Shown: positions 1,141 to 50,020, counted from the stretch's first letter. The stretch is DNA of 51,107 bases from Candidatus Gottesmanbacteria bacterium (GCA_030679255.1 JAUXTO010000013.1:256189-307295); one strand, 5' to 3'. Notes: a model not told the origin generated them from the letters alone. Program-made: numbers and translations.

Positions 1141-1219
1141 ATCATCGAATTACGAATGAAGCCCGAATATACGAATTCATTGGATAATTCGTATATTCGT
1201 ACAGATTCGATATTCGATA
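1141..1219. repeat. Word-repeat hairpin element, ACGAAT/ATTCGT family, copy 1 of 3 (rplO-secY spacer)
   Basis: atcatcgaattacgaatgaagcccgaatatacgaat is followed by the inverted block attcgtatattcgtacagattcgatattcgat. It is near-identical to 16550-16628: the first 36 nt differ at 2 positions and the last 14 nt are identical. Confidence 0.85.
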
Positions 1220-1222
1220 ATG

Positions 1223-3466: not shown

Positions 3467-3476
3467 AATATTATTG

Positions 3477-3662
3477 TTACCACGACGCCTTTGTCACGCC
3501 GGGTAATTCTCCTTTATGAGCGAGCTCCCGAAAACACAATCTGCATATTCCAAACTTCCGCATGAACGCCCGGTTTCTGCCGCATAACCCGCAGCGGTTT
3601 TTATGCCGGACGGCAAATTTTTGACTATGTTCAAATTTAACAACATCAGAAGTTTTCGCCAT
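3477..3662 (-). CDS. rpsN: 30S ribosomal protein S14, type Z (zinc-binding)
   Basis: 61 aa with a CGLCGR...CRLCFRE double CxxC motif, located between rplE and rpsH. Confidence 0.93.
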
Positions 3663-11866: not shown

Positions 11867-11913
11867 AAATACTACCAATATTACCAATACTACCAAAAAA
11901 CAATACTACCAAT
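11867..11913. repeat. Word-repeat element, ACTACCAAT family, copy 1 of 2 (fusA-tuf spacer)
   Basis: aaatactaccaatattaccaatactaccaaaaaacaatactaccaat. The same word array is at 22598-22636. Confidence 0.82.
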
Positions 11914-14904: not shown

Positions 14905-15120
14905 TCAATCCAATACATGTGGGGAAAGCTCGTAGCCGGAAGAGCGCACCACGTCACTGATTTTTCCTTCAGCTATCCTTGAATCATCAAACTCCACGTC
15001 AAGCGTTTGGCGGGCATAACTGCAGGAAGATTTGACACCGATGTCCTCCAGGTCGCTTTCGATGATGAGCGGACAGCTCGTACAATGCATGCCGATTACG
15101 TTGTAAGACTTTTTGATCAT
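14905..15120 (-). CDS. copZ: Heavy-metal-associated (HMA) domain copper chaperone
   Basis: 71 aa with a GMHCTSC metal-binding loop. Its start overlaps the upstream stop by 4 nt (ATGA). Confidence 0.88.
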   Translation of the reverse strand: MIKKSYNVIGMHCTSCPLIIESDLEDIGVKSSCSYARQTLDVEFDDSRIAEGKISDVVRSSGYELSPHVLD

Positions 15121-16154
15121 GGAATAACGTTAAATGATCCCGTATACATACCCATGGAACAGGCAAATGTGAGTGGGCCGGACTTTTGAGGCGTAAAGAC
15201 AATTTCTTCCTGCCCATTGACGGGTAAAATTTTAGAAATTCCCAAACCGGGAATGGTAAACGCGCGGGCGCAGCTTTGTGCGTTGTCCGCGATCAACCGC
15301 AACCGGACAGGAACACCGACCTTGAGAGTCGTTGCGTCTGCCGAATACCCGTTACTTCTCACGTTCATCACCACCTGTTGCATACCATCGCTGGCGACTC
15401 CAGCGACAACCCCTTGCCTGGCCAACGCAAGCTCGTCAACACTCATCGTTGCCGCCCGATACAGAGTACCGATGGTAAAAAACGAGCCGGTCAATCCCAC
15501 CCCGCCGCTTATGGAAACCAAAGCAAACAGCGCCACAATCCCGGATGCAACATACGTAAAAATTTTACGTTTAAGAAGCGTAAGAACTGCGGTGCCGAGC
15601 AAAACAAACACGGGGCTAGTACCCAGAACAAACGCGCCCATGATCCCTGCCCCCAACCATGGACTGCCGGAGGCCACAGCGACTAACATCGTCGCCTGCG
15701 TGATACCACAGGGCATGAATATCGTAAAAAATCCGAGCGCAAGCGGGGCAAACGAAGATTCGTCGCGGCTGATACCCCGCAGTAGCCGGTATGCCCAACG
15801 AGGCGGAGTAATCACCGCGTAGCGGAAGATCGGATGAAGATCGATGATGCGTGCCGCTGTCGCTAACATAAAAAGCCCGGCTACAATCTGCACGAATCCC
15901 ATCACCATGGGAGACAAAACGAGTGTCGAACCGAGCATTCCTAAAAGGAATCCAAGGATGACGTGCGCGACGAGCTTGGCGCCGAGAAACATGCCAATTA
16001 CCCCAAAACTCACTGATTTTTTTTGGGAACCCTCAATAAGCCCGGCTTCCGTCGTTTGGGAGACGGATGAAGCAAGTAACCCGCCTTGCACTGCCAGGCA
16101 CGAGATGCCACCAGTCGTCAGTCCCGTCAAAAATGCCAACCACACTGTATTCAT
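15117..16154 (-). CDS. TauE/SafE-like permease fused to a C-terminal cupredoxin-like domain
   Basis: GGISCLAVQGG and FMPCGITQ motifs sit in a polytopic N-terminal part. The C-terminal part (VVMNVRSNGYSADATTLKVGVPVRLRL...FACSMGMYTGSF) resembles a cupredoxin_1-type domain. The start is assigned to MNTVW. Confidence 0.72.
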   Translation of the reverse strand: MNTVWLAFLTGLTTGGISCLAVQGGLLASSVSQTTEAGLIEGSQKKSVSFGVIGMFLGAKLVAHVILGFLLGMLGSTLVLSPMVMGFVQIVAGLFMLATAARIIDLHPIFRYAVITPPRWAYRLLRGISRDESSFAPLALGFFTIFMPCGITQATMLVAVASGSPWLGAGIMGAFVLGTSPVFVLLGTAVLTLLKRKIFTYVASGIVALFALVSISGGVGLTGSFFTIGTLYRAATMSVDELALARQGVVAGVASDGMQQVVMNVRSNGYSADATTLKVGVPVRLRLIADNAQSCARAFTIPGLGISKILPVNGQEEIVFTPQKSGPLTFACSMGMYTGSFNVIP

Positions 16155-16271: not shown

Positions 16272-16550
16272 ATGCCGAAGGGAATGCCGAGAGACCAGTC
16301 AATTGAACGAACTATTCTTCACCGGCTAAAAATAGCTCGGGGACACTTGGATAAAGTCATCGGAATGGTAGAAGAAGACCACTACTGTATCGATGTGGTC
16401 CACCAATCCATGGCCGTCCAGGCGGCGCTACGGGAAGCGGATCATTTGATCCTGAAAAATCATATGCAAACGTGTGTGGCTGACTCCATCCGGAAGGGTG
16501 ACGCAAACGACGTCATTGATGAAGTGATGAAGATCATGGAGAAGAAGTAA
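16272..16550 (+). CDS. csoR: CsoR/RcnR-family metal-sensing transcriptional repressor
   Basis: 92 aa. RLKIARGHLDKVIGMVEEDHYCIDVVHQSMAVQAAL...MQTC carries the C-H-C ligand pattern of Cu(I)-sensing CsoR. Confidence 0.88.
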   Translation: MPKGMPRDQSIERTILHRLKIARGHLDKVIGMVEEDHYCIDVVHQSMAVQAALREADHLILKNHMQTCVADSIRKGDANDVIDEVMKIMEKK

Positions 16551-16628
16551 TCATCGAATAACGAATGAAGCCCGAATATGCGAATGAGAATGAATTCGTA
16601 GATTCGTATCAATTCGATATTCGATGAT
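16550..16628. repeat. Word-repeat hairpin element, ACGAAT/ATTCGT family, copy 3 of 3
   Basis: atcatcgaataacgaatgaagcccgaatatgcgaat...gaattcgtagattcgtatcaattcgatattcgat. It is the near-twin of 1141-1219. Confidence 0.85.
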
Positions 16629-22597: not shown

Positions 22598-22636
22598 CAA
22601 ATACTACCAATCCGACAAATACTACCAATACTACAA
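22598..22636. repeat. Word-repeat element, ACTACCAAT family, copy 2 of 2
   Basis: aaatactaccaatccgacaaatactaccaatactacaa, immediately before the ATG at 22637. Confidence 0.82.
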
Positions 22637-23506
22637 ATGAAAAAAGAAAGTAAACCCATTTTCTATGGAGCGCTTGCAAGTGTAGGACTCTTGAGCCTTT
22701 ACGCCGTCACGATGACTCTTTTGAGCGGTTGGGGGGCGGCGGTCGAGCAGTTTAGCGCTCTCTGGTATCTGATGGTTCCGCTTGCTGCCGGCTTTGGCAT
22801 ACAAGTTGGGCTGTACACAAAACTTAAAGCCACAATTCGGGAGCGATCCAAAGGAGCGATTGCTGCAGGCGGCACGTCTGCAGGGGCGTCGATGCTTGCC
22901 TGCTGCGTCCACCACGCGACGGATGTGCTCCCTCTCCTGGGGCTCTCCGGCCTAAGTTTATTTCTCACACAATTCCAAAAACCCATCCTCATCATAAGCT
23001 TGGGCATCAATGTTTTGGGCATCTACGTCATCTTCAAGCATATAAAACATGAAACGGTCTCCAAAACAACCTTAATACTCATGACTATTGCTTCCGTTAC
23101 TCTCCTTGCGGTATGGGGAATTGCAAGTCAACGCACGTTGAACGAAAAAACCTCACTATCCCCCGCTACGCTCGCATGGGAAACGAAAGAACACGTCGGC
23201 GGCAATGTCACGGTTGCAGTCACCCCCATCACACTCCGGCCGCTCTTTCCTGCATCATTTGACGTTGCCTTTGAAACACATTCCGTTGAACTCGACTTTG
23301 TGATCGAAAGTGTCGTCCGCCTCACTGATGAAAAAGGCACCCGTTATACGCCGCATTGGCAGGGTTCCCCTCCCGGAGGACACCACAGAAAAGGAACGCT
23401 CGTATTTACCCCGGATATACCCAAATTAACAATACTAACGTTAGAATTTATCAAAATCGCCGGAATCCCAAGCCGAACATTTAAATGGGAAGTCAATAAA
23501 CCATGA
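22637..23506 (+). CDS. Membrane protein with ACCVHH motif and a C-terminal soluble domain (function unknown)
   Basis: The start is assigned to MKKESKPIFYG because the upstream ORF-track extension crosses the spacer repeat. It has about 4-5 TM helices, the motif SMLACCVHHATDVLP, and a C-terminal part with GSPPGGHHRKGTLVF. Confidence 0.6.
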   Translation: MKKESKPIFYGALASVGLLSLYAVTMTLLSGWGAAVEQFSALWYLMVPLAAGFGIQVGLYTKLKATIRERSKGAIAAGGTSAGASMLACCVHHATDVLPLLGLSGLSLFLTQFQKPILIISLGINVLGIYVIFKHIKHETVSKTTLILMTIASVTLLAVWGIASQRTLNEKTSLSPATLAWETKEHVGGNVTVAVTPITLRPLFPASFDVAFETHSVELDFVIESVVRLTDEKGTRYTPHWQGSPPGGHHRKGTLVFTPDIPKLTILTLEFIKIAGIPSRTFKWEVNKP

Positions 23507-23679: not shown

Positions 23680-23726
23680 TTTCTATTAAGGGAGCATGAG
23701 TGATGGGCTTAAGGTATTATAGAGAT

Positions 23727-23807
23727 ATGCAAACCATAACAATGTTTGAAGGCCAAAAAATCCGTCGGACATGGGATAGTAAAAAGGAAAAGTGGTATTT
23801 TTCGTAA
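23727..23807 (+). pseudogene. Bro-N-type N-terminal gene fragment
   Basis: MQTITMFEGQKIRRTWDSKKEKWYFS then a stop. It matches the FxGxKIRxxxxxxxxWxFS N-terminal pattern of the full Bro-N/DinD-like gene at 45364-46209 and is followed by the hairpin cggttac-aaacc-gtaaccg (23814-23832). Confidence 0.55.
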
Positions 23808-23923
23808 ACGAAACGGTTACAAACCGTAACCGGTCGAACGTGGTCAGCGGATCAAATTATCTTCCACAACTATTTAATAAGAAAAATAATATTATGCAAA
23901 CAGAAATTTTGTAATTCATTCTT

Positions 23924-24916
23924 ATGAAGGAAATACCAAAAACTCAAATCATAATCTACGAAGCAGAAAATGGTAAAACGCGCATAGAGGTGCGTTTTGA
24001 GAATGAAAATGCATGGTTGACGCAGAAACGAATAGCAGAATTGTTTGATTGTAGTATTGATAATGTTTCTTTGCATCTTAAAAATATTTTCTTTGAGCAC
24101 GAGCTTGATCCAAAAGCAGTAATCGAGGAATACTCGATAACTGCCAGCGACGGCAAGCAATACAGAACGAAACATTACAACCTGGAGGCCATTATCTCCA
24201 TCGGATACCGGGTAAATTCAATACGAGGCACCCAGTTTAGGATTTGGGCAACGGAGCGTCTTAAAGAATATATGATCAAAGGGTTTACCTTGGACGATAT
24301 CCGTCTCAAGCAAGGCGGACACAAGTCCAGATACTTTGAAGAACTTTTGCAACGCATCCGCGATATCCGCAGCAGCGAGCGGATGCTCTATCAAAAAATC
24401 ACGGATATATATGCAACAGCTATCGATTATCGTAAAGACGCCAAAGAAACAGAACTTTTTTTCCAGACGGTACAAAATAAGATGCACTACGCCGTAACCG
24501 GAAAAACTGCGGCCGAGATTATCTCCGAGCGCGCAAGTCACATCAAGCAAAATATGGGACTGACGAACTTCCCGGGGATGCATCCGATCAAACGCGATAT
24601 TTATATAGCGAAAAACTATCTTGATGAAAAAGAGCTGAAACTTCTCAACCGCGTTGTTGATGCTTATCTATCATTTGCTGAAATCCAAGCCCAAAGTGAA
24701 CATGTAATGAAAATGGCTGATTGGACTGGCAAACTTGATGAATATTTGTCTCTGATGGGGAAAGGAGTGCTTCAACATTCGGGTAGTGTGAGCGCAATTG
24801 ATGCCGAGACGAGAGCGGAGAAAGAATTTGCCTCCTATAAACGGGTGCAAGACAAAAACTACATTTCAGATTTTGATAAAATAGTAAAGAGGTTGGCAAA
24901 AAAAAGTAACAAATGA
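23924..24916 (+). CDS. RhuM-family protein
   Basis: IIIYEAENGKTRIEVRFENENAWLTQKRIAELFDCSIDNVSLHLKNIF...NLEAIISIGYRVNSIRGTQFRIWATERLKEY is a characteristic RhuM N-terminal and core sequence. The gene is visibly AT-richer than its neighbours. Confidence 0.85.
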   Translation: MKEIPKTQIIIYEAENGKTRIEVRFENENAWLTQKRIAELFDCSIDNVSLHLKNIFFEHELDPKAVIEEYSITASDGKQYRTKHYNLEAIISIGYRVNSIRGTQFRIWATERLKEYMIKGFTLDDIRLKQGGHKSRYFEELLQRIRDIRSSERMLYQKITDIYATAIDYRKDAKETELFFQTVQNKMHYAVTGKTAAEIISERASHIKQNMGLTNFPGMHPIKRDIYIAKNYLDEKELKLLNRVVDAYLSFAEIQAQSEHVMKMADWTGKLDEYLSLMGKGVLQHSGSVSAIDAETRAEKEFASYKRVQDKNYISDFDKIVKRLAKKSNK

Positions 24917-24985
24917 TAAAGAACAAAATAACATTCCCGGAACACAAAGAAGTGGGCATTATGAGTGAATTTACAGTAATCTGAT

Positions 24986-25120
24986 ATGCAAATAAAAACA
25001 ATCTTAACATGTCCAAAATGTGGAGAAGCGCAGAAAGCCACTATGCCAATAGATGCCTGCCAATATTTTTACAAATGCCAAAAGTGCGGTGAGATGTTAG
25101 AATCAAAACTAGGAATATGA
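24986..25120 (+). pseudogene. Truncated duplicate of the GDCCVxC gene 5' part
   Basis: MQIKTILTCPKCGEAQKATMPIDACQYFYKCQKCGEML then ESKLGI and a stop. Nucleotides 24986-25100 parallel 25987-26101, and the GDCCVxC motif itself is missing. Confidence 0.8.
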
Positions 25121-25152
25121 CAAACTGAAATTAGAGTTTACTGAAAAAACAC

Positions 25153-25974
25153 ATGATAAATAAAAGTAAAAAGATGATTGTTCAAGGTAGAGAAATAAAT
25201 ATTATTCTTCAAAAAGATAATGAAGATTTCATTTCCCTTACCGATATATTGAAAGCAAAGGATGGTGATTTCTTTATTTCCGATTGGCTCAGAAATAGAA
25301 ATACCGTTGAATTCCTGGGAATATGGGAAAAGCTACATAACCCAAATTTTAATTATGGCGAATTTGCCACAATTAAAAGTCAAGCAGGATTGAACAGTTA
25401 CAAAATAAGCGTAAAAGAGTGGGTCAAAAAGACGAACGCTGTCGGTCTCAAGGCAACTGCGGGACGGTATGGGGGGACATATGCCCATAAAGATATTGCT
25501 TTTGAATTTGGCATGTGGATCAGTCCTGAATTTAAAATTTATCTCATCAAAGAGTTTCAGAGACTAAAAAATGAAGAGAGTGAAAAATTACTCTTGGGTT
25601 GGGATATAAAACGCACGTTAGCAAAAATAAACTATAAAATTCATACAGATGCTATCAAAGAACATTTGATCCCTCTCCAACTTACGAAGCCAGAAGTCAA
25701 TGTAATCTATGCCACGGAGGCTGATGTACTTAATATGGCATTGTTTGGTAAAACCGCCAAAACGTGGCGTGATGAACATCCATCCAAAGACGGCAATATT
25801 CGTGATTATTCGAATGTAACTCAACTGGTGGTGCTGGCAAATCTGGAAGGAATAAACGCCGAACTTATCCGACGCAAATTGCCTCAAAATGAACGCTTAA
25901 TACAGCTAAATATTATTGCAATTACTCAAATACAGTCACTGGTAGGGAATAAATCAATACAGCAATTGAAATAA
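25153..25974 (+). CDS. KilA-N domain-containing protein
   Basis: FISLTDILKAKDGDFFISDWLRNRNTVEFLGIWE...AGRYGGTYAHKDIAFEFGMWISPEFKIYLIKEFQRL is a typical KilA-N domain. Confidence 0.85.
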   Translation: MINKSKKMIVQGREINIILQKDNEDFISLTDILKAKDGDFFISDWLRNRNTVEFLGIWEKLHNPNFNYGEFATIKSQAGLNSYKISVKEWVKKTNAVGLKATAGRYGGTYAHKDIAFEFGMWISPEFKIYLIKEFQRLKNEESEKLLLGWDIKRTLAKINYKIHTDAIKEHLIPLQLTKPEVNVIYATEADVLNMALFGKTAKTWRDEHPSKDGNIRDYSNVTQLVVLANLEGINAELIRRKLPQNERLIQLNIIAITQIQSLVGNKSIQQLK

Positions 25975-25986
25975 TATTGTTTCAAT

Positions 25987-26169
25987 ATGCAAACAGAAAC
26001 AAATTTGACCTGTCCAAGATGTGGAAAAGCGCAGAAGGCGACTATGCCCACCAATGCCTGTCAGCATTTCTATAAATGCCAAAAGTGCGGTGAGATGTTA
26101 AAACCAAAAGAGGGAGACTGTTGCGTCTTTTGTTCGTATGCCGATAGCAAGTGTCCGTCAAAGCAGTAG
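25987..26169 (+). CDS. GDCCVxC-domain small metal-binding protein
   Basis: 60 aa: CPRCG...CQKCGEMLKPKEGDCCVFCSYADSKCP. Confidence 0.8.
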   Translation: MQTETNLTCPRCGKAQKATMPTNACQHFYKCQKCGEMLKPKEGDCCVFCSYADSKCPSKQ

Positions 26170-26666: not shown

Positions 26667-26801
26667 ATGATGGGATATGGATGGGGAGGAACTATGATGG
26701 GATCATTCGGCGTGTATGGACTTTTGACGTGGCTCGCGCTTATCGTATTTTTAGTCTTGGGAAGCTTGTACTTTTGGAAAGGGTTAACGAAGAAAAAATA
26801 A
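26667..26801 (+). CDS. Small Gly/Trp-rich single-TM protein (hypothetical)
   Basis: 44 aa, below the ORF-track cutoff: MMGYGWGGTMMGSFGVYGLLTWLALIVFLVLGSLYFWKGLTKKK. A GGAGGTG Shine-Dalgarno sequence lies 8 nt upstream. Confidence 0.5.
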   Translation: MMGYGWGGTMMGSFGVYGLLTWLALIVFLVLGSLYFWKGLTKKK

Positions 26802-26882
26802 GATGTAGCCCGCCTACGCTTGCTTTGCGCCTTTTCACTACTATTCGTAGACGGCGCAAAGAGCGCGTGAGCGGTGGGTTTA

Positions 26883-26920
26883 AGAAACACTACGTCTCGT
26901 AAGACTCGACAAGTGTTTCT
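26883..26920 (+). promoter_or_regulatory. Inverted repeat AGAAACACT-N20-AGTGTTTCT immediately upstream of the RBS of the 26938 ORF
   Basis: The 9-bp arms are at 26883-26891 and 26912-26920, followed by AAAAGGTGGTG and the ATG at 26938. It is a paralogue of 26611-26649. Confidence 0.55.
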
Positions 26921-26937
26921 AAAAGGTGGTGATAATT

Positions 26938-27213
26938 ATGAAACATGATCCAATGGCAACGGCTAACGCAATGGCCGCAACAGTTGCGTTTATTGCGGTA
27001 GTCTGCGCGCTGGCAATCATACTCGCTCCTGAACTTTCGCTCGGAGTAGCCCAATCCTGGTTTCACGGGATTGACCTAAGCAAAATGAGAATGGCGGTCA
27101 ATCCATCTCTAGGCTCACTCCTGTATGGATGGATAACAGCCACGATTGGCGGATGGGTAGTAGGGTACGTCTTTGCATGGACCTACAATTGGTTTGCGCC
27201 AAAAAAGAAATAG
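26938..27213 (+). CDS. DUF5676-like small membrane protein
   Basis: MKHDPMATANAMAATVAFIAVVCALAIIL...GWITATIGGWVVGYVFAWTYNWF has two TM helices and the characteristic C-terminal aromatic motif. Confidence 0.55.
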   Translation: MKHDPMATANAMAATVAFIAVVCALAIILAPELSLGVAQSWFHGIDLSKMRMAVNPSLGSLLYGWITATIGGWVVGYVFAWTYNWFAPKKK

Positions 27214-43013: not shown

Positions 43014-43628
43014 TTATAAATTTTTCATCCGGGTATACACCCATCCGGCGATCGCACCCCCGGTCATGGGACCTGCAGCATACAGAAGCATATTCCCAAG
43101 ATGCGAGGAAATTCCGGATAGATCAAATATGAGAGGTGCAACACCCACTGCCGGGTTAAACGCGCCGCCCGAAATAGGCCCGCCGGCTGTTGCTGCCGCC
43201 AACAAAGTCATCCCGATTGCCAACCCGTAATAATCATTTCCTTTTGTTTTCTCTGTCGCTGCCACATGATGGACAACACTCACGAGCGCAAAGGTAAAGA
43301 GTGCTTCAACGACAAATGCCGTTATCCAGCTCACGTGCGGCGCAGGAGCCGGAAGAAAATAATCTTTTTTGATGAAGGCATAAACTCCCGATGCCACCAA
43401 CCCGCCCAATAGTTGAACTGCCATATATTTGATGGCATCATTCCGATTAATTTTTTTAGAAACCCAAAGTCCCAACGTCACTGCGGGATTATAGTGCGCC
43501 CCGGAAATATAGCCACCCATATACACCATCGCCGCAAGGATGAGTCCTATGGCTACCGGATTGCCGCTCAGGGCGACGACAAGCACCAGGAAAAACGTAC
43601 CCATGAATTCAACAAGAAGTTTCTTCAT
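43014..43628 (-). CDS. MIP/aquaporin-family channel
   Basis: Two NPA boxes (SGAHYNPAVTLG and GGAFNPAVGV), six hydrophobic segments, 204 aa. Confidence 0.88.
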   Translation of the reverse strand: MKKLLVEFMGTFFLVLVVALSGNPVAIGLILAAMVYMGGYISGAHYNPAVTLGLWVSKKINRNDAIKYMAVQLLGGLVASGVYAFIKKDYFLPAPAPHVSWITAFVVEALFTFALVSVVHHVAATEKTKGNDYYGLAIGMTLLAAATAGGPISGGAFNPAVGVAPLIFDLSGISSHLGNMLLYAAGPMTGGAIAGWVYTRMKNL

Positions 43629-43681
43629 ATGATTTCATTATATCCTCTTTACGTCTCCGTCGTACACCACCCGGTGGGTGC

Positions 43682-43752
43682 CATTCACTCCGGAATCTTT
43701 GAGGTGTGAGGAGGTCATCTTCCAGAATCAGGATGGTTTTGTTGAGGATCAT
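43682..43752 (-). repeat. Receiver-like 5' stub repeat, copy 1 (shortest)
   Basis: Minus strand reads ATGATCCTCAACAAAACCATCCTGATTCTGGAAGATGACCTCCT..TCAAAGAT..GGAG. It encodes MILNKTILILEDDLLT and then decays. It lies upstream of the aquaporin gene. Confidence 0.85.
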
Positions 43753-43877
43753 AAAATTATCCGGATTCACACTTCTCTACCATCCAAAAAGAAAAGGCTT
43801 GAACCTAGGTAACCTGGCGGGTTAATTTTTACTACAAACAGGCGCAACCCTATTGCACCCGGAAGGTAATTCCCTAT

Positions 43878-44135
43878 TTATTTCCCCCACATCCCTGCAT
43901 CAATTTCTTGTAGAGAAAATCCATGTTTTTTAATGCTACTCATTATCTTTGACTGTGTTACTCTGTCATATTCAGACTTCCCTTGTAATACAATTAAAAA
44001 TGGTCGTTCCGGGGCCATGTGTTTTTTGGGACAGGTGTACTTCAGATGTCGTGAGCCTACTTGCCGCTCAGAAGAAAACCCGAGTCTTTTGAGGCAACGG
44101 GTAAATTCTGTCGATCGGTAAAAATTGAATTTCAT
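43878..44135 (-). CDS. hicA: HicA-like toxin (YcfA/HicA family mRNA interferase)
   Basis: STEFTRCLKRLGFSSERQVGSRHLKY...FLIVLQGKSEYDRVTQSKIMSSIKKHGFSLQE fits the HicA pattern (LxxxGF...GSxHxxY). The start is assigned to MKFNF. Confidence 0.68.
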   Translation of the reverse strand: MKFNFYRSTEFTRCLKRLGFSSERQVGSRHLKYTCPKKHMAPERPFLIVLQGKSEYDRVTQSKIMSSIKKHGFSLQEIDAGMWGK

Positions 44136-44325
44136 TCTGATATTTCTTTGGTATATCAAAAATTGTATAAATAAGATCGTTGACACAAAAAAATAATTCA
44201 TTTAAATCGTTTGCTTCTGTAATGGCATTGAATTCATCAAGCGTGGCAATAAGGACGCCTGAATCGCCTTTTTGTATATGTACCGCTATGTGATCCGGTA
44301 GGATCATCTTTTTTGTTTTTGTCAT
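44068..44325 (-). CDS. hicB: HicB-like antitoxin (N-terminal domain type)
   Basis: HIAVHIQKGDSGVLIATLDEFNAITEANDLNELFFCVNDLIYTIF. An AGGTGA Shine-Dalgarno sequence precedes ATG ACA AAA. The extended -10 element TGCTATAAT lies upstream. Confidence 0.62.
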   Translation of the reverse strand: MTKTKKMILPDHIAVHIQKGDSGVLIATLDEFNAITEANDLNELFFCVNDLIYTIFDIPKKYQNEIQFLPIDRIYPLPQKTRVFF

Positions 44326-44412
44326 ATACATCACCTATGGCCAATTATAGCACACGATAAGACAAATTTTTTATCCTCATTCAATTACCTTTTTAATCAT
44401 CCTCACGTATCG

Positions 44413-44572
44413 ACAACTCCAATAAAACCTTATATTGCTCATCCTGTTCGATCGTTGCCTACCGCTCCAATATCTTTGAGAACGTCAGCAGGTCATCTTC
44501 CAGAATCAGGATGGTTTTGTTGAGGATCATAGTTCACCCACGCCCCCGGTCACACACCCCCGGTGTGTGTGA
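44413..44572 (-). repeat. Receiver-like 5' stub repeat, copy 2 (with upstream hairpin)
   Basis: Minus strand has the hairpin CACACACC-GGG-GGTGTGTG, then GGTGAACT, then ATGATCCTCAACAAAACCATCCTGATTCTGGAAGATGACCTGCT...AAGATATTGGAGCGGTAGGCAACGATCGAACAGGAT...GGAGTTGT. The ORF stops after 23 codons. Confidence 0.88.
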
Positions 44573-44613
44573 GAATTGTAATTCTTTCTGTGACGTCCCA
44601 TACTGGATTGAGC

Positions 44614-45084
44614 ATGAAGAATCTGCATAAACTCATCGCTTCGATTGCCCTGTGCGAGGCGGTCGGCATCCTCAGCACCCCATTTACCCTAGCCGCCATT
44701 ACGGGATGGTATACCAATCTCATCAAACCTTCCTTTTCCCCTCCCAATTGGATCTTCGGCCCCGTCTGGACCTTGCTCTACATGATGATGGGAATATCTC
44801 TTTTTCTTATCTGGGAGTTAGGATTAAAAAAGAAAAAAGTAAAAACCGCGGTGTATTATTTTGGAGCCCAATTAGTACTGAATTTCTTCTGGTCTATCGC
44901 ATTTTTCGGGTTGCGCTCACCACTTCTGGGGCTCGTGAATATCACGATACTTCTGGGGCTTATTCTCTTGACGATGAAACACTTTTATCCCCTGTCCAAA
45001 CCTGCCTTTTATCTTCTGGTACCCTACTCCCTGTGGGTCAGTTTTGCAGCGATTCTCAATGGAGCAATCGTCATTCTCAATTAA
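44614..45084 (+). CDS. tspO: TspO/MBR-family tryptophan-rich sensory protein
   Basis: AVGILSTPFTLAAITGWYTNLIKPSFSPPNWIFGPVWTLLYMMMGISLFLIW...LVLNFFWSIAFFG, five TM helices. The start is assigned to MKNLHKL. Confidence 0.88.
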   Translation: MKNLHKLIASIALCEAVGILSTPFTLAAITGWYTNLIKPSFSPPNWIFGPVWTLLYMMMGISLFLIWELGLKKKKVKTAVYYFGAQLVLNFFWSIAFFGLRSPLLGLVNITILLGLILLTMKHFYPLSKPAFYLLVPYSLWVSFAAILNGAIVILN

Positions 45085-45309
45085 CAACTCCTACAGCACA
45101 GTCAAACGTGCCAGTCGAGTTTGACTCGACGGCTGATCCTACGCAATCATTGCCAACCTCTCCACTATCTCTGAAGTTCCACGGAGCGAAAGTCCCGCCG
45201 AAGTCACGCCACACGAGACGAAGGAGGATTGAAAGCGTTAGCAGATCATCTTCCGGATTCAGGATGGTTTTGTTGAGGATCATAGTTCACCCACACCCCG
45301 GGTGTGTGT
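45085..45309 (-). repeat. Receiver-like 5' stub repeat, copy 3 (with upstream hairpin)
   Basis: Minus strand has the hairpin CACACC-CGG-GGTGTG, then GGTGAACT, then ATGATCCTCAACAAAACCATCCTGAATCCGGAAGATGATCTGCT...TTCGGCGGGACTTTCGCTCCGTGGAACTTCAGAGATA...GGAGTTGT. This is the 68-codon ORF 45077-45283 in the track. Confidence 0.88.
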
Positions 45310-45363
45310 AATTCTTCATATAAATACGCAAAATCTGAAGGAGAGAGTTTATAGATACTATCG

Positions 45364-46209
45364 CTACAAAGATTTGATTATCTTGGTTTTTTTGACCGGC
45401 ATGTAATTTTCACTTGACACAACCCGTTTTTTAGATTGCTGTTCAATATCCCTTCTGGTTCTTCCAGCGACGCTTCCGCCGTCCTTTGCATCACGGTCAA
45501 GATTCGGAAATCCTCGTGAATTCCGATCGCGATGGAATTTAGTCGTGGTTGCCTCTCCCAACATCGTTAAGATAAGCTCAATATCCGTCATATGATCCCG
45601 AAGATTTTGCCGCTGTAAACCTTTCAGCTTCTTATAATCTTCAACGGTGAGATTAAACGCACCCTTCATGATGTCATTGGTCAAAATCGCATAATCGATA
45701 CTTTCATCAGCACCACGCTCCATCCATTCGTCGGTCAATTCATTTCGTACGGAAATACCACGCACCCGCTTTTCTACCCACTCCTTGGAATATCCCTTTT
45801 GTTTATATATGGCTTTCATACGCTTCATTGAAAGTTCCGGATCTTCTATTTCGGCAATCCGTTCATACCCGACACGTGCGAGCCAACGCTTCAGTGGTTC
45901 CGCTTTGGGAGATGGGACAGACTGGATAATACGAAAAATACCCTCCGTGTTGGCACAGTCCGTTTCGCGCATTTTTCCATCGGCGGCTGCCAATTTCAAC
46001 TGTCGACAAATTGTCGACGGTTCAAAAGAGTCATCTGTTTTTACCCTGATTTTCATCTTAAACCAGTAATCTCGGGGATCTTTGCTATCGGTCAGGACTG
46101 CAATAATATCCACTACTGAAAACCACCATTCGGCATGAAAAATGGTTTTTCTGATTTTTCTACCTTTAAACAAGGCAATTTTCGTCGTTTCGATGTCGCG
46201 GGTGGTCAT
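45364..46209 (-). CDS. Bro-N domain protein (DinD / phage antirepressor-like)
   Basis: IALFKGRKIRKTIFHAEWWFSVVDIIAVLTDSKDPRDYWFKMK...GIFRIIQSVPSPKAEPLKRWLARVGYERI. A TATAAT box lies 7 nt upstream of the ATG. Confidence 0.78.
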   Translation of the reverse strand: MTTRDIETTKIALFKGRKIRKTIFHAEWWFSVVDIIAVLTDSKDPRDYWFKMKIRVKTDDSFEPSTICRQLKLAAADGKMRETDCANTEGIFRIIQSVPSPKAEPLKRWLARVGYERIAEIEDPELSMKRMKAIYKQKGYSKEWVEKRVRGISVRNELTDEWMERGADESIDYAILTNDIMKGAFNLTVEDYKKLKGLQRQNLRDHMTDIELILTMLGEATTTKFHRDRNSRGFPNLDRDAKDGGSVAGRTRRDIEQQSKKRVVSSENYMPVKKTKIIKSL

Positions 46210-46233
46210 ACGTCAATTATACTCGTTTTCCGA

Positions 46234-46401
46234 AAACTCCTACGCCTGATCCTGTTCAATCGTTGCCAACCGCTCCAGTATCTCTGAAGCTCCACGGAGC
46301 GAAAGTCCCGCCGAAACCCTGTGTGAAAGCCAAGGGTGAAGGGGGATTGAAAGCGTGAGCAGGTCATCTTCCAGAATCAGGATGGTTTTATTGAGGATCA
46401 T
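46234..46401 (-). repeat. Receiver-like 5' stub repeat, copy 4
   Basis: It starts 15 nt after the hsdR stop: AGGTG, then ATGATCCTCAATAAAACCATCCTGATTCTGGAAGATGACCTGCT...TTCGGCGGGACTTTCGCTCCGTGGAGCTTCAGAGATA...GGAGTTTT. It encodes 53 codons (MILNKTILILEDDLLTLSIPLHPW...). Confidence 0.88.
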
Positions 46402-46416
46402 GCAATAACACCTGAC

Positions 46417-48786
46417 TCACCTTGGGAGGGCCAAGTAAAGATTTTTTTGGAAGTCAAAATAGATTGCTCGAATATTCTCCACATCCCCTAACGCTTCTTC
46501 TGCATCAGCAATAGCGTGATATTTTAAATTCAAAAGTATGGGTAATTTTTCCTCATCAAGCTCCTCAAATCCAGCTGCTTCATACTTTTTCAATACAAAA
46601 TTTAGAAATTCTTCTTCTTTATCGGTAAGGTGTTCAAAGATATGACCCTTGTTCGCTTCGGCCCGTTCTTTCCGTGTAATTAGTGGATTATTAAAAGCAA
46701 GATATGCAAGAACGTCATAAAAATCACATTGTTCTGCGTTGACGATCTCGGTAATATTTTCAATCTGCTCTAGATCAATACCTATATCAAATAGGCGTTC
46801 CAATAATCGTTTTCTAGTTGTGGGATTTGACCATATTTTCCTAAGTTCCTCTTCACTCTTAAATAGATCTGGCAGAATTCCATAAAGGCTTTTAATAAAC
46901 TCCTCTGATGACATTGGTTTTCCATCTGCGCCCCAAAATGAAGTGGAAATCATGTGTTGAATCTCTCGATCTTTGCCATCTCGTAATTTTATTTTAATTT
47001 TCTTCTTTGATTTACACTCACAGGGTGATTTACCACAAATTGGACATGGAGGTTTTGGTGGTTTCTCACAAACACAAGGTTTTTGTCCACAAACATTACA
47101 TACTTGTACAGGGGTTTTTTTACAAATACAAGGATTTTGACCGCATTTAGCACAGACTTCTTCTACTGGTTCACCATCCCATTCGGGGTCTAGAAAATGA
47201 TGACAGGCGTCTACAAAATCATAAATAGTAAAATATTCTTTTCCATCAAAAAGCCTCGTACCTCGTCCAATGATCTGCTTAAATTCAATCATTGAGTTTA
47301 TAGGACGCATCAAAACTATATTTCTGATATTGCGTGCGTCTATGCCAGTCGAAAGTTTTTGGGAAGTGGTCAAAACGGTAGGAATTGTCTTTTCATTATC
47401 CTGAAATTCTCGTAGATATTGTTCACCACGCGCACCATCATTCGCGGTCACACGCACACAGTAATTTGGCTCTTTGCTTTTCTTATATTGATTTACTAAA
47501 TCTCGCACCGCCAAAGCATGCGCTTGATTTGCACAAAAAATAATGGTCTTTTCAGCTTGATTCATCTCATCCATCATCACCCGTACGCGTTTTGCCTCAC
47601 GCTCTTTGATTTCAATAATTCGATTAAAATCAGCCTCCTCATATACCTTTCCTTCTTCTACTTCTCCTTCAATAATCTGGTCATCAGATGTGTAAATATA
47701 ATCATCAATTGTTGTTTTTACGCGCTTTACTTTAAATGGTGTCAAAAATCCATCGTTTACGCCTTCTTTGAGTGAATAAACATATACGGGTTTGCCAAAA
47801 TATTTATACGTATTAATATTATCTTTTTGCTTGGGCGTAGCGGTAAGACCAAGTTGAACTGCCGGAAAGAAATATTCTAAAATTCCACGCCAATTACTCT
47901 CATCGTTGGCGCCGCCACGGTGACACTCGTCAATGACGATAAAATCAAAAAAGTCGGGCGGATATTCTCCAAAATACGGAGTGCCATTTGGCCCACTCAT
48001 AAATGTCTGAAAAATCGTAAAGAAAATACTCCCACTCATAGGCACCCCACCCTTTTTACGGATATCAAATGGATTGATGCGCACGAGCGCGTCCTGGGGG
48101 AATAATGAAAACGCATTGAACGCTTGATCGGCTAAAATATTCCGGTCAGCCAAAAATAAAATTCTGGGTCTCCTACTTCCATCGTGCTTTTGATTCCAGC
48201 GGGTTTGAAAAAGTTTCCAAGCAATCTGAAATGCAACGGCAGTTTTTCCGGTTCCCGTTGCCATAGTCAAAAGAATTCTATTTTTTTCTTCTGCTATAGC
48301 GTTTAATACATTATTGATAGCTATCTCTTGATAGTAACGCTTGCCATATTCGCCTTCATTGGGCACACTGCTAAATTTTTCCTTCCACTCATTCTGATCC
48401 GAATAGGTCCTACTCCATAACTCATCTGGTGTCGGAAACTTCTCAATATTTCCCTCTTGCCCAGATTTCATGGAAATTTGATAAATTTCTCGACCGTTGG
48501 TGGCGTAGGTATAGTCTATGTGAAGTTTCTGTGCATATGCTTTGGCTTGTGCCACTCCTTTAGCCGAAGGCAAATTTTCGGCTTTTGCCTCAATCACCGC
48601 GACCTTACGATTTTTATAGACTAAAATATAGTCAGCAATATCTGCCTTGCCACGCATTCCACCGGTTTGAATTTTACCCTCGGTGATGTGATGCTCCCGC
48701 AAGACTCTCGATCCTTCAACTTCACCCCAACCACTGGCTTTCAGTTTAGGGTCAATATATTCCGCTCGTGTTTCTGCTTCATTCAT
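46417..48786 (-). CDS. hsdR: Type I restriction enzyme R subunit (EcoEI-like architecture) with Cys-rich insert
   Basis: N-terminal nuclease region (NEAETRAEYIDPKL...DYILVYK...IEAK), helicase motifs TMATGTGKT, VIDECHR, LGLTATP and QIIGRGTR, and a C-terminal helical domain. Three CxxCG(Q/K)xPCxC units lie at 47014-47157. Confidence 0.92.
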   Translation of the reverse strand: MNEAETRAEYIDPKLKASGWGEVEGSRVLREHHITEGKIQTGGMRGKADIADYILVYKNRKVAVIEAKAENLPSAKGVAQAKAYAQKLHIDYTYATNGREIYQISMKSGQEGNIEKFPTPDELWSRTYSDQNEWKEKFSSVPNEGEYGKRYYQEIAINNVLNAIAEEKNRILLTMATGTGKTAVAFQIAWKLFQTRWNQKHDGSRRPRILFLADRNILADQAFNAFSLFPQDALVRINPFDIRKKGGVPMSGSIFFTIFQTFMSGPNGTPYFGEYPPDFFDFIVIDECHRGGANDESNWRGILEYFFPAVQLGLTATPKQKDNINTYKYFGKPVYVYSLKEGVNDGFLTPFKVKRVKTTIDDYIYTSDDQIIEGEVEEGKVYEEADFNRIIEIKEREAKRVRVMMDEMNQAEKTIIFCANQAHALAVRDLVNQYKKSKEPNYCVRVTANDGARGEQYLREFQDNEKTIPTVLTTSQKLSTGIDARNIRNIVLMRPINSMIEFKQIIGRGTRLFDGKEYFTIYDFVDACHHFLDPEWDGEPVEEVCAKCGQNPCICKKTPVQVCNVCGQKPCVCEKPPKPPCPICGKSPCECKSKKKIKIKLRDGKDREIQHMISTSFWGADGKPMSSEEFIKSLYGILPDLFKSEEELRKIWSNPTTRKRLLERLFDIGIDLEQIENITEIVNAEQCDFYDVLAYLAFNNPLITRKERAEANKGHIFEHLTDKEEEFLNFVLKKYEAAGFEELDEEKLPILLNLKYHAIADAEEALGDVENIRAIYFDFQKNLYLALPR

Positions 48787-48793
48787 AGACTAA

Positions 48794-50020
48794 TTATAGT
48801 TCAGCATGGAATGCTTTGCTCAGCACCGACTTTTTAAACTCATCCAAGTCAGACAATTTTTGTTCGTATATTTGTTCCAATCTTTTTGTCTCAGCAGAAA
48901 ATTCATCAAGTTTTTTTACTATAATCTTTTGTTCCGATACTTTTGGTACCAATATTTTTATTTCCTTCAATATTTTTACTGAAACCACATTTTTTATTGC
49001 TGCTCCTTTTGTATACATCTTTAAATCATCCTGAAAAACACCACTCTCCATCCAATACTTCAAAAACTGATTGTATATAATGTGGTGCGGACTCAGCTTC
49101 AGCAATGCCTGATTTATGATTCCTTTTTTAATACCATCTGGTGCAACTGCAATCTTGCCCATCGTCCCTGAACAACTCATGATTAAATCACCAGATTTTA
49201 ATTCAAATCGTTTCATTTCATTAAATTTTTTTTCATCTACAAAATAACGAACATTTGTGAATTGATTATATATGGCATGCTGTTGCTCGTAGACCACATA
49301 GCCGTCCTTTTTAAAAATATTTTTCTTTAGACTTCCTCCAAATGGCCCCCTCACAAAACCACAGACATCTCCCAGCTTCGTTTCATCCCAATCTTTTCCA
49401 GGATTCGCGAAAATGCTCTGTAAATAAGACTCAAAAAGCTCTTTGGAATTTTGTAAATTTATTTCGGCGTTTCTCTTTATTTCTTCAATATTTATAAAAA
49501 TATCATCTAAAATTTTTACAATGCGCTGTTGTTCAGGAAACTGTGGAAACGGTATCTCTATTTCTTTATACTTATGCAGATCAAGATTTCTAATTCCAGT
49601 AGAGTGACTCTGCATGCGCTCTGTAATGCCGATAAAATAGGAATAGAATAGAAATTTATGTAAAAAATTAAAGTCCAACACGCCCTGATCTTTAACCCTT
49701 ATTACAGAGGTAAAATTACTAAAGGAGAAATTTCCGTCAGTTTTATCAAATATAATGACACGACCAACAGGCTGTTTTGGCCCTCCTCCAGATTTTTCCA
49801 AAACTATGTCTCCATACGCTAGCTTTCGTTTATCAAATTGCTTTCTCTCCACATCTAAATATGCTATATCGGTATCATTCAACTTGCCTTCTTTGGTAAT
49901 ATTTGTGTTTCTGATAACGCCAACATGTATATATGGCGGTTCTTTCCCTTTCCATAATCCATTATAGAAATCACAAATATCGCCAAGTTTTTTTGTTTGC
50001 CAGTTGGTTTTCATAATCAT
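48794..50020 (-). CDS. hsdS: Type I restriction-modification specificity subunit
   Basis: WQTKKLGDICDFYNGL plus a second TRD starting WDETKLGDVCGFVRGPFGG. Conserved helical spacers (FPEQQRIVKILD, VSEQKIIVKKLD) are present. 408 aa. Confidence 0.92.
   Translation of the reverse strand: MIMKTNWQTKKLGDICDFYNGLWKGKEPPYIHVGVIRNTNITKEGKLNDTDIAYLDVERKQFDKRKLAYGDIVLEKSGGGPKQPVGRVIIFDKTDGNFSFSNFTSVIRVKDQGVLDFNFLHKFLFYSYFIGITERMQSHSTGIRNLDLHKYKEIEIPFPQFPEQQRIVKILDDIFINIEEIKRNAEINLQNSKELFESYLQSIFANPGKDWDETKLGDVCGFVRGPFGGSLKKNIFKKDGYVVYEQQHAIYNQFTNVRYFVDEKKFNEMKRFELKSGDLIMSCSGTMGKIAVAPDGIKKGIINQALLKLSPHHIIYNQFLKYWMESGVFQDDLKMYTKGAAIKNVVSVKILKEIKILVPKVSEQKIIVKKLDEFSAETKRLEQIYEQKLSDLDEFKKSVLSKAFHAEL

Follow-up and report, generated by a model that had tools for sequence, protein, structure and literature searches.

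Organization of the array

The window analysed here is a stretch of 51,107 nt from Candidatus Gottesmanbacteria bacterium (GCA_030679255.1, JAUXTO010000013.1:256189-307295). Downstream of its type I restriction genes lie four same-orientation, truncated 5' copies of a receiver-type gene (hereafter stubs, numbered by ascending coordinate), with unrelated genes between them. From upstream to downstream on the minus strand, the features are:

46417..50020, minus strand: hsdR and hsdS, type I restriction genes, directly upstream of copy 4
46230..46401, minus strand: stub copy 4, a long form made up of receiver-gene nt 1-109 and a 63-nt insert, beginning 15 nt past the hsdR stop
45364..46209, minus strand: Bro-N/DinD-like gene, PADLOC candidate PDC-S13 (Pfam Bro-N, E 9.5e-11; PADLOC PDC-S13, E 9e-114)
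45287..45308, no strand assigned: palindromic hairpin CACACACC CGG GGTGTGTG, upstream of copy 3
45085..45283, minus strand: stub copy 3, a long form carrying a frameshift and a further 34-nt insertion, abutting the tspO stop codon
44563..45084, plus strand: tspO, in opposite orientation (Pfam TspO_MBR, E 6e-47)
44551..44572, no strand assigned: the palindromic hairpin again, located between copy 2 and the start of tspO
44393..44530, minus strand: stub copy 2, short form joined to the last ~13 receiver-gene codons, with a premature stop after codon 23
43878..44334, minus strand: two-gene module, an 88-aa ORF and a HicA-family toxin (HicA_toxin, E 0.002, below the Pfam cutoff)
43753..43829, minus strand: decayed copy of the receiver gene's own leader (GAAATCAACCCGACGGGTTA...TTCAAACC...), upstream of copy 1
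43668..43752, minus strand: stub copy 1, mosaic, with nt 1-47 perfect to the consensus, nt 48-85 at ~70% and no similarity thereafter
43014..43628, minus strand: MIP/aquaporin gene, the last variable module (Pfam MIP, E 1e-33)

A preliminary description of this DNA had reported a core of 41-45 nt recurring four times on the minus strand with 0-3 mismatches, each copy with its ATG at complement 43752, 44530, 45283 or 46401. A core search bore this out, locating a 44-nt core at 43709-43752, 44487-44530, 45240-45283 and 46358-46401, with 1, 0, 3 and 1 mismatches in copies 1-4, respectively, and no match in 100 shuffled sequences. Much else of the described layout was recovered: stubs lie at module boundaries, the gap from the hsdR stop to the first ATG measures 15 nt, the reading frames from the ATG comprise 47, 23, 68 and 53 codons in copies 1-4 (23-68 had been given), and the CACACACC/GGTGTGTG hairpin and GGGTGAACT are present upstream of both copies 2 and 3. 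The block of about 37 nt assigned to copies 3 and 4 is in fact longer, at 74 nt with 89% identity (repeat family D3). The proposed -10 boxes can be read as TATAAT after copies 1, 2 and 4, in the last case immediately after the stub and before the Bro-N gene; these boxes rest on reading of the sequence, a promoter scan being no better than chance. The string GGAGTT(G/T)T, described as a common end of copies 2-4, is what remains of the codons for P-Y-D-F in copies 3 and 4, and the similar string of copy 2 derives from the 3' end of the gene.

The stub repeat is modular: gene nt 1-57 come first, an optional in-frame insert of 63 nt follows (among the window stubs, in copies 3 and 4 alone), and a tail extends to gene nt 106-109. 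The possibility that the insert is a dispersed mini-element was rejected, as it was seen only within long-form stubs. As pieces of the receiver gene the stubs range from 47 to ~117 nt with varying 3' ends, nt 1-47 being the sole stretch common to all copies, and every pair of copies has its own extent of homology (copies 2/3 from -45 to +57; copies 3/4 over the full ~172 nt; copies 1/2 over 47 nt). Outside the window, the 307-kb contig carries a fifth stub (P0004). An assembly artefact is unlikely, since the same two-stub structure is present in the independent assemblies of the related loci L005 (ENA) and L010 (JGI).

Of the intervening modules previously described, the Bro-N gene, the reversed tspO, a weak HicA with its small upstream ORF and the MIP gene were all identified, but the zinc-ribbon gene does not belong to a cassette: it is conserved backbone (ZnR-Dus-rpoB in L004, L008 and L010), only MIP being variable there and missing at the syntenic site in all three. 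tspO is probably backbone as well rather than cargo, judging from its position next to ZnR/Dus/rpoB in L043 and L017. The Bro-N family occurs in many phyla at 64-79% identity. The 88-aa ORF and HicA module is found beside a stub in L002 and L043 too, at a different array position. As for the non-coding elements, the leader seen before copy 1 is also located upstream of intact receiver genes in L007 and L019, and the hairpin precedes both intact receiver genes and other genes elsewhere (L029); in L010 it is found upstream of tspO with no stub after it.

The stubs are remnants of a stand-alone receiver gene

The stubs had been interpreted as N-terminal parts of a receiver-type gene, and a search for the intact form identified a 144-aa gene at L003:734-1168, at L007:7248-7682 and in L015, whose predicted fold matches a receiver. 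On sequence comparison, the stubs are non-functional 5' remnants of this stand-alone gene, and copy 2, which keeps both gene ends, is an internal deletion of it. Comparable structures to copy 2 are L017/P0008 and L002/P0002. No intact copy was found in the window, where tblastn and blastn searches with the full gene matched 5' parts only.

The L003 and L007 genes share 84% identity, with 55 of their 70 differences at third codon positions. The family has more than 365 members, and the named sources are all Patescibacteria/CPR except for one MAG labelled Nanoarchaeota. An AlphaFold2 model of the protein (pLDDT 91.3, pTM 0.87) predicts a flavodoxin-like receiver fold, with Rcp1, the ComE REC domain and RcpA as the top Foldseek matches in the PDB (E down to 8e-6, TM 0.63-0.69). 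No match of the parent protein to Pfam Response_reg was obtained at E <= 1, and the family profile retrieved only marginal matches to the PmrA receiver among PDB sequences (E 0.0085). Residues E11, D12, D64, S90 and K110 are invariant in 40 sequences and putatively correspond to the receiver acidic pocket, phospho-acceptor Asp, Ser/Thr and Lys, an assignment made by pattern without structural superposition.

In five of the contexts inspected the receiver gene directly follows defence genes on the same strand, namely a short pAgo-SIR2 after HsdMSR, an AAA_15 system, a type III R-M system, an SLFN-like helicase and a 358-aa gene read as a candidate SIR2-like protein; in L034 and L039 the genes immediately upstream carry no annotation. 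Because it normally stands right after variable defence genes in Patescibacteria, the receiver gene forms the conserved edge of a gene-exchange hotspot. The position of hsdR and hsdS before copy 4, at a GC content of 0.35-0.40 versus ~0.48 for the rest, fits this usual order of a defence system followed by the receiver gene. A phage origin of the gene was rejected, as IMG/VR contained no relatives by protein patterns or by one DNA pattern.

Module content and order vary among related genomes

Relatives sharing the rpoB-Dus-zinc-ribbon backbone have one or two stubs at the same place with other cargo or another order, so that the cassettes are variable, as the preliminary description had proposed to check. 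Content and order differ between the window and L010, L004, L017, L002 and L043: L004 and L008 show HigBA, stub, 86-aa ORF and backbone; L010 shows HigBA, stub, Bro-N, 191-aa ORF, stub, tspO and backbone; and L043 shows stub, hicBA, tspO, Dus and rpoB. One and the same stub-to-Bro-N junction stands behind hsdR in the window, behind the native leader in L001 and behind an HTH gene in L005, and one upstream context, the HTH gene, precedes three different cargos. The form of the stub can also differ at orthologous junctions: copy 2 is short with a long counterpart in L002, and copy 4 is long with a short counterpart in L001.

This variation bears on whether the stubs descend from a local tandem duplication of the receiver gene, with decay of the extra copies and later arrival of unrelated genes. 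The proximity and shared orientation of the copies, together with the two gene ends retained in copy 2, would be consistent with such a history. However, what precedes the copies is of three kinds (hsdR, the hairpin type or the native leader), single stub-plus-cargo units recur at other positions in L001, L002 and L043, and the cargo genes are unrelated to one another. Moreover, the window stubs differ at six synonymous versus two non-synonymous sites, mostly variants also found in intact genes of other genomes, in agreement with the earlier view that they are not paralogues formed in situ. The fragments thus appear to derive from different alleles without in-situ duplication, and on contexts, variants and recurring units we regard tandem duplication as the least probable of the readings considered here.

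Only slightly better are the prospects of a function maintaining the stubs, either by encoding a small peptide (MILNKTILILEDDLL...) or by serving the cargo genes as promoter, leader or insulator, which we consider highly unlikely. ORFs of 38-77 aa with this N-terminus have been called in several metagenomes, the first 47 nt are almost invariant in many copies, and the receiver gene's leader before copy 1 could drive MIP. Nevertheless, the ORF ends all differ, with a stop after 23 codons in copy 2, a frameshift in copy 3 and no ATG in L006; invariant residues are altered by non-synonymous changes in copy 3 and in L005; and the cargo genes have TATAAT boxes of their own. The near-invariance stems in part from the search pattern, which fixed the amino acids, and the distant intact gene of L019 differs at many synonymous sites. 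Since orthologous stubs diverge like their neighbours (copy 3 and its ortholog in L005/L010 share 83% identity, equal to that of the flanking tspO), the stub sequence is under no special constraint. On these three grounds, a nucleotide-level constraint peculiar to the first 47 nt was rejected.

The same architecture is found at other genes

Stub duplications flank cassettes at six unrelated genes, one in this window (a Zn-finger gene) and five at other CPR loci (cutA, a PD-(D/E)XK-like gene, a methyltransferase 3' end, an integrase 3' end and a TerS-like gene). The window example comprises:

24984..26109, plus strand: Zn-finger example, a 125-nt 5' stub of a 60-aa gene (24984-25108), KilA-N, then the intact gene start (25985-26109)
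25153-25974, plus strand: KilA-N cargo, PDC-S22, between the Zn-finger stub and the intact gene start

Between the Zn-finger stub and the intact gene, 9 codons differ synonymously and 11 non-synonymously, in line with an origin from different alleles, and reading both translations suggests that the Cys ligands are kept. L041 and L042 represent an occupied and an empty site, distinguished by an AbiEii cassette of 893 nt and the 31 nt of the cutA start that are duplicated with it, and L019 carries three methyltransferase 3' stubs. In L039/L040 an integrase 3' stub is joined to a TerS-like 5' stub at one junction, the leftover that misaligned stacking of Int-Gabija-TerS and Int-157aa-receiver-TerS variants would leave. 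Bro-N does not always make a stub of the gene that follows it, as in L041 and L042 it lies upstream of ftsK with no ftsK stub. A point against the model favoured below is that in four gene families the duplicated segment begins 1-2 nt before the ATG, which we would attribute to tiny intergenic spacers combined with selection to keep the gene.

Evidence on site-specific recombination

From the same-orientation repeats, the preliminary description had proposed either serial site-specific insertion into one target or an integron-like cassette mechanism. In the first of these, the initial ~47 nt of the receiver gene, perhaps with the palindromic leader, would be the att site of a tyrosine or serine recombinase encoded elsewhere, and the modules would be decayed integrative elements (CIME-like) or serial cassettes. 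Several observations point this way: the modules are flanked by the 5' end of a target gene in four copies on one strand, as tandem accretion yields (PMC5704250); a minimal 47-nt core is common to all copies; junctions cluster at nt 106-109; the partial leader of L017 is interrupted at its palindrome's midpoint; and tyrosine recombinases are encoded within 5 kb of the receiver gene in L039/L040.

Against this, the absence of a visible integrase or recombinase, already remarked upon, extended to the 29 window proteins that were scanned against Pfam in three batches (a set leaving out the ribosomal-protein part and some small ORFs), none of which matched Phage_integrase, recombinase or transposase families. 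In L018, L019, L021 and L034 the annotation showed none within 8-10 kb of the gene or stub, nor was any seen in loci lacking annotation. A constant att core at which crossovers would always fall is missing, only nt 1-47 being shared while 3' ends vary from 47 to 117 nt and pairwise homology extents all differ, and orthologous stubs diverge as fast as flanking genes. Six unrelated genes would moreover demand many site specificities. In L043 and L017 tspO belongs to the backbone; because copies 1 and 2 lie beyond it, the array does not represent stacking at one site, and serial insertion into one target is not supported. We therefore consider site-specific accretion unlikely.

The integron-like mechanism fared no better, the copies being mosaic and neither a recombinase, among the window proteins scanned, nor an attC-like fold having been identified; intI next to the array, attI and Pc are likewise absent from the window. 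DNA folds of the four stubs on both strands gave z-scores of -1.11 to +0.96 against shuffles, which are not significant, and no inverted-repeat core or hairpin within a stub, the only stable hairpin nearby being the 8-bp CACACACC palindrome outside it. Less likely still than accretion, in our estimate, is that the receiver-gene start, possibly with its palindromic leader or hairpins, serves as the attachment site of an undescribed trans-acting recombinase or nuclease, giving Patescibacteria an integron-like platform for taking up and rearranging defence genes at gene starts; if it did, the cluster at nt 106-109 and the duplications starting 1-2 nt before the ATG would be its footprints. A tRNA or tmRNA as integration target was ruled out, since the window contains neither, and no Rfam family was detected across the whole window at gathering thresholds. 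A motif, CCATC(N)GATTYTG, linking the receiver stub with a stub of gene X in L001 was treated as chance, being confined to stubs in this window.

A proposed model of stacked cargo variants

We favour, with a probability of about 0.55, the reading that the stubs are scars of homology-anchored and illegitimate recombination, which stacked alternative cargo variants of one hotspot. From these end products we infer a pathway in which incoming DNA from relatives with other cargo would pair with a resident copy via the conserved first ~50-110 nt, by RecA-type homologous recombination, while its other end would be joined illegitimately, amounting overall to homology-facilitated illegitimate recombination. 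Both cargo variants would thereby be stacked, without replacement of the resident cargo, and a truncated gene copy would be left at the new junction. Repeated events, followed by deletions, gene conversion or crossover among stubs, may have produced the present array, and a module between two stubs could be lost, moved or passed on by ordinary recombination, so that a dedicated recombinase would be unnecessary. Natural transformation or another route of DNA entry into the host is assumed.

Researchers have proposed homology-facilitated illegitimate recombination for Vibrio cholerae T6SS immunity arrays and for rhs C-terminal displacement (PMC5361080). As expected for displacement of this kind, a fragment of the anchor gene adjoins each displaced module and the modules differ between close relatives, pointing to horizontal acquisition. 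Contrary to that expectation, no intact anchor gene stands at an array end in the window; intact genes occur in other genomes. Stub junctions cluster at two homopolymer runs of the receiver gene, A5 (nt 54-58) and T5 (nt 102-106), where most of the illegitimate joins would have fallen. Five independent junctions lie within nt 106-109, a clustering tighter than usual for illegitimate recombination, which could instead reflect a specific cleavage site.

The favoured reading would mean that very small, reduced genomes such as those of Patescibacteria/CPR need no dedicated mobile-element machinery to assemble and rearrange their defence islands: short conserved ends of genes would act as portable homology, and the scars would record the order of acquisitions. 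The 144-aa receiver-type protein, usually encoded after defence systems, offers a practical marker for islands and new defence genes, and may be a regulator. For genome scans the array calls for caution, as same-orientation repeats bounding single-gene modules can mimic integrons.

Comparison with known systems

The array resembles the orphan-module arrays of rhs C-terminal displacement, CDI/Rhs orphans and V. cholerae T6SS immunity genes (PMC5361080), in which a conserved gene is the homology anchor, fragments of it lie beside displaced modules, and the modules are horizontally acquired and strain-variable without a dedicated recombinase. In contrast to those arrays, the present one is anchored by the 5' end of a small receiver gene that marks the hotspot's downstream edge; the anchor occurs as 5' stubs rather than 3' core fragments, with no intact copy in the window. 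The cargo consists of independent whole genes (defence candidates, a channel and a toxin-antitoxin pair) with putative promoters of their own instead of anchor-fused toxin tips.

With tandem accretion of ICEs, IMEs and CIMEs it shares direct repeats of a target-gene end bounding the elements, and decayed elements without an integrase persist in such arrays (PMC5704250). The modules here are, however, only 0.6-1.1 kb with one function each, the repeats are mosaic and variable in length, no integrase was found in the window, and the tspO backbone lies inside the array, so that the copies do not all occupy one target site. Sedentary chromosomal integrons likewise have small cassettes of one function each, among them a toxin-antitoxin pair and a gene in reverse orientation, with similar repeats of 100-170 nt in one orientation between them, whereas here intI, attI and Pc are lacking, the repeats are fragments of a coding gene without an attC hairpin, and the cassettes have putative promoters of their own.

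Bacterial defence islands carry variable defence content beside a conserved flanking gene and exchange it via flank homology. The hotspot described here differs in that its flank is a receiver-type gene, so far almost only seen in Patescibacteria, and in that exchange has been repeatedly additive, leaving flank stubs rather than clean replacement. Taken together, the array looks like the product of ordinary repeated recombination at a hotspot rather than a new integron-like system.

A modular repeat array downstream of the hsd genes

The 44-nt core lies four times on the minus strand of the window, whereas dinucleotide-preserving shuffles yielded it in 0 of 100 cases; the four-fold repeat, and the unrelated gene contents between its copies, are as given in the preliminary description.

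Repeat copies and neighbouring genes (minus strand unless stated)
HsdS and HsdR genes: upstream of the array, low GC, ending 15 nt ahead of copy 4
Copy 4, 46358-46401: core with 1 mismatch; 63-nt insert at 46284-46346
Copy 3, 45240-45283: core with 3 mismatches; insert at 45171-45226
Copy 2, 44487-44530: core with no mismatch
Copy 1, 43709-43752: core with 1 mismatch
Genes between copies: Bro-N; TspO (opposite strand); a weak HicA match with a small ORF upstream; MIP

Read on the minus strand, an alignment of the four intergenic regions resolves the repeat into a head (ATG to ~nt 57 of the gene), an optional 63-nt in-frame insert (at nt ~57) and a tail (AGATAnTGGAGCGGTTGGCAACGATYGARCAGGATCAG). 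Among the window copies the insert is present in copies 3 and 4 only; it recurs in L002, L005 and L010, three of the loci compared from other genomes and metagenomes, always in stubs and in no intact gene, with GCTTTCA and GCTTCAG at its flanks. Copy 1 matches perfectly over 47 nt and at ~70% identity to nt ~85, with no similarity beyond, while copies 2 and 3 have ~45 nt upstream in common, including a CACACACC/GGTGTGTG palindrome. A fifth, long-form stub (P0004, 59 aa), whose PYDFSV end is undecayed, is encoded on the same 307-kb source contig outside the window.

In several CPR genomes, CACACACC-N3-GGTGTGTG palindromes stand 6-15 nt ahead of where various genes start (window 44551-44572 and 45287-45308; L029 7973 and 9546; L011 5557). 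Other dispersed repeats of the window (1141-1221 with 16550-16628; 11868-11912 with 22600-22653) consist of paired 36-nt blocks rich in ACGAAT/TTCGTA, at 86-94% identity, and, at two places between genes, of short AATACTACC units in tandem.

The parent is a receiver-fold gene

A degenerate scan returned one locus from species-representative genomes (L001) and fifteen from metagenomes (L002-L016). Since in three of these (L003, L007 and L015) the same sequence opens an intact 144-aa gene, the window copies are 5' remnants of this gene. The L003 and L007 versions are 84% identical, and 55 of their 70 differences fall at third codon positions, a pattern that identifies it as an ordinary gene subject to purifying selection. 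In copies 3 and 4 the GGAGTT(G/T)T motif is the decayed codon run P-Y-D-F of this gene. In copy 2, as in L002 and L017 (protein P0008), the 5' ~117 nt are joined to the last ~13 codons (...HLPMREDNIVHPK), so that this copy is an internal deletion; no middle part of the gene is left in the window. Duplication in situ is an unlikely origin for the array.

The family numbers over 365 members, and all named sources are Patescibacteria/CPR, bar one MAG labelled Nanoarchaeota. It has no match in Pfam or PADLOC and is absent from IMG/VR. Five residues (E11, D12, D64, S90 and K110) do not vary across an alignment of 40 sequences. The term "receiver-like" used initially is apt at the level of predicted fold, because a confident AlphaFold2 model (pLDDT 91) resembles receiver domains such as those of Rcp1 and ComE (TM 0.63-0.69).

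The intact gene usually sits behind defence genes

In five of the contexts fetched, the intact gene lies directly behind defence genes on the same strand.

Genes directly upstream of the intact receiver gene
L018: RadC, HsdM, HsdS, HsdR, pAgo, SIR2
L019: PLD-helicase, MmeI-type enzyme, AAA_15 system
L021: NERD, type III Mod and Res
L029: RadC, MazG, SLFN-like helicase
L007: 358-aa gene that we read as putatively SIR2-like

At L034 and L039 the genes immediately 5' are short and unannotated; L021 and L034 differ in the presence versus absence of a defence insert directly upstream (the receiver gene is at ~8001 or ~10001 in L018, L019, L021, L029, L034 and L039). The window fits this defence-then-receiver arrangement, because hsdS and hsdR end just before copy 4. 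PADLOC candidates among the cargo include Bro-N (PDC-S13), a KilA-N gene at 25153-25974 (PDC-S22) and a RhuM gene at 23924-24916 (PDC-S05). Next to the RhuM-family gene, in a low-GC patch, a further Bro-N gene (23700-23914) is internally deleted, its N-terminal and C-terminal pieces remaining. The association of defence islands with a receiver gene that is all but confined to Patescibacteria is new and useful, and this family is a candidate island marker or regulator.

Relatives carry stubs at the same site with other content

Relatives with ~90% RpoB protein identity and a shared rpoC-rpoB-Dus-zinc-ribbon (ZnR) backbone have stubs at the same site, at module boundaries, and the content between them varies from locus to locus.

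Gene order at related loci
L004, L008, L011, L012: HigB, HTH, stub, 86-aa ORF, leader with DUF5676, ZnR
L006, L013: the same upstream genes, shorter stub, leader with DUF5676
L010, L005: HigB, HTH, stub, shortened Bro-N, 191-aa ORF, long stub, tspO (reversed), backbone
L017: internally deleted receiver gene, another Bro-N, tspO (reversed), leader with DUF5676
L043: stub, hicBA, tspO (reversed), Dus, rpoB
L002: KilA-N, type III R-M, 261-aa gene, hairpin, long stub, hicBA, partial leader, Fic

The hicBA unit moves with its stub, and its position differs between genomes. Judging from these gene orders, tspO is probably a backbone gene; window copies 1 and 2 would therefore lie on its far side from copies 3 and 4, which does not fit the serial insertion into a single target that had been proposed.

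Two leaders recur among the loci compared. One, of ~155 nt, precedes DUF5676 two-transmembrane genes (window 26789-26943; L008 6789-6941; L010 9431-9583; L017 ~3420-3540) and has 86% identity across genomes that are ~77% identical in rpoB DNA. It has a predicted two-hairpin structure with several compensatory pairs, all from one divergent sequence (L006), lacks a match in Rfam and may act as a cis-regulatory RNA. The other, of ~50-80 nt (GAAATCAACCCGACGGGTTA..ATAG..TTCAAACC..TTCTTTTT, containing the palindrome AACCCGACGGGTT), heads unrelated modules, namely the receiver gene, HigB, Fic, a 77-aa ORF and a PD-(D/E)XK-like gene (window 43753-43829; L008 4198, 4481 and 5456; L011 4318 and 5718; L019 9923; L002 387), and could be a shared promoter/operator or another homology anchor.

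The same architecture occurs at other genes

Elsewhere, too, cassettes lie between a stub of a gene end and a second occurrence of that end.

Stub-bounded cassettes at other genes
Window 24984-26169: 125-nt (44-codon) 5' stub of a Zn-finger gene (24984-25108), KilA-N, intact 60-aa gene (25985-)
L001: 29-nt 5' piece of a putative PD-(D/E)XK-like gene, flanking that gene, a receiver stub and Bro-N
L019, 7568-7625, 8322-8372 and 10845-10894: three MmeI-type methyltransferase 3' ends (YKLYGLTxEEIxIVE) bounding two cassettes, one of which holds the intact receiver gene
L039/L040: Int, Gabija pair, TerS 5' stub, Int 3' stub, 157-aa gene, receiver, TerS
L041: 893-nt AbiEii cassette in cutA at +30, with repeats at 14195-14225 and 15118-15148; empty site at L042 8121-8160

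The Zn-finger repeat is 83% identical and begins 2 nt ahead of the ATG; stub and intact gene differ by 9 synonymous and 11 non-synonymous codon changes, and, as we read both translations, the Cys ligands are kept. At L039/L040 the TerS-like 5' stub runs straight into the integrase 3' stub (repeat pairs 5656-5761/9238-9344 and 9122-9261/10528-10667 in L039), the order expected if two variants of one hotspot had been joined illegitimately and out of alignment. L039 has a separate 70-nt direct repeat (18682-18751/19706-19775) around an 89-aa ORF and a PIN module. L041 and L042 represent occupied and empty states of one site, where a 31-nt duplication that begins 1 nt ahead of the ATG restores cutA. 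The first 9 nt of cutA and of the receiver gene are identical (ATGATCCTC). Stub, cassette and gene form a general architecture in these genomes.

Proposed recombination at gene starts

The analysis revealed no dedicated machinery. The 29 window proteins scanned include no recombinase or transposase; no recombinase gene is annotated within 8-10 kb of the gene or stub in L018, L019, L021 and L034, and inspection of unannotated loci revealed none. Exceptions among the loci are L039/L040, which have two tyrosine recombinases, L017 and L043, which have IS fragments, and L029, which has an IS200-type TnpA. Whichever strand was folded, the stubs did no better than their shuffled counterparts. The integron-like mechanism suggested earlier is not supported.

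Several comparisons suggest that the stubs recombine with one another. The same stub-to-cargo junction has different upstreams (in front of Bro-N stands hsdR in the window, the native leader in the case of L001 and an HTH gene in that of L005), three different cargos share one upstream context (HTH), long and short stub forms differ at orthologous junctions, and copy 1 has a pristine 47-nt patch with decayed flanks. The stubs derive from different functional alleles: over their first 48 nt the four window copies show 8 differences, 6 of them synonymous. The sequence is under no special constraint: copy 3 is 83% identical to its L005/L010 orthologue, the same as the adjoining tspO, and the intact gene of the more distant L019 has many synonymous-site differences. 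That the stubs are themselves functional is improbable. The head is the best homology anchor because it is the most conserved part of the receiver protein.

Stub 3' ends do not fall at one site: they lie at nt ~47-50 (L009), ~57 (L005), ~82-85 (L006, copy 1), 106-109 (copy 4/L001, copy 3/L005, L004, L016, L043) and ~117 (copy 2/L002, L017), and two clusters match an A5 run (nt 54-58) and a T5 run (nt 102-106). We take T-rich cassette ends, of which the 3' flank of tspO in L017 and L043 is an example, as a hint of joining by microhomology.

We favour, at a probability of about 55%, a record of repeated additive recombination at a defence-island hotspot with the receiver gene as its conserved edge. 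An incoming variant would pair within the conserved gene start and its other end would be joined illegitimately, stacking two cargo variants with a gene stub at the junction; later deletions and stub-stub recombination would then reshape the array. The main rival, accretion of decayed integrative elements (a concept from PMC5704250) by a trans-acting recombinase, is a distinctly less likely account, roughly a one-in-five prospect in our judgement. The tight junction cluster at nt 106-109, the duplications beginning 1-2 nt ahead of an ATG and the location of most of the genome outside the window keep it in play. A site-specific system would need a separate specificity for each unrelated gene, which generic homologous and illegitimate recombination does not.

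The array is a known kind of scar array in a new variant, and the original observation of the repeats stands. Two outcomes that the preliminary description had named as refuting it did not occur: the content does vary between relatives, and the stubs do lie at module boundaries. The same process as in our preferred reading, additive recombination, has been proposed for T6SS immunity arrays of V. cholerae and for rhs C-terminal displacement (PMC5361080); here it is mirrored to the 5' end of the gene, the cargo is defence and the hosts are Patescibacteria.
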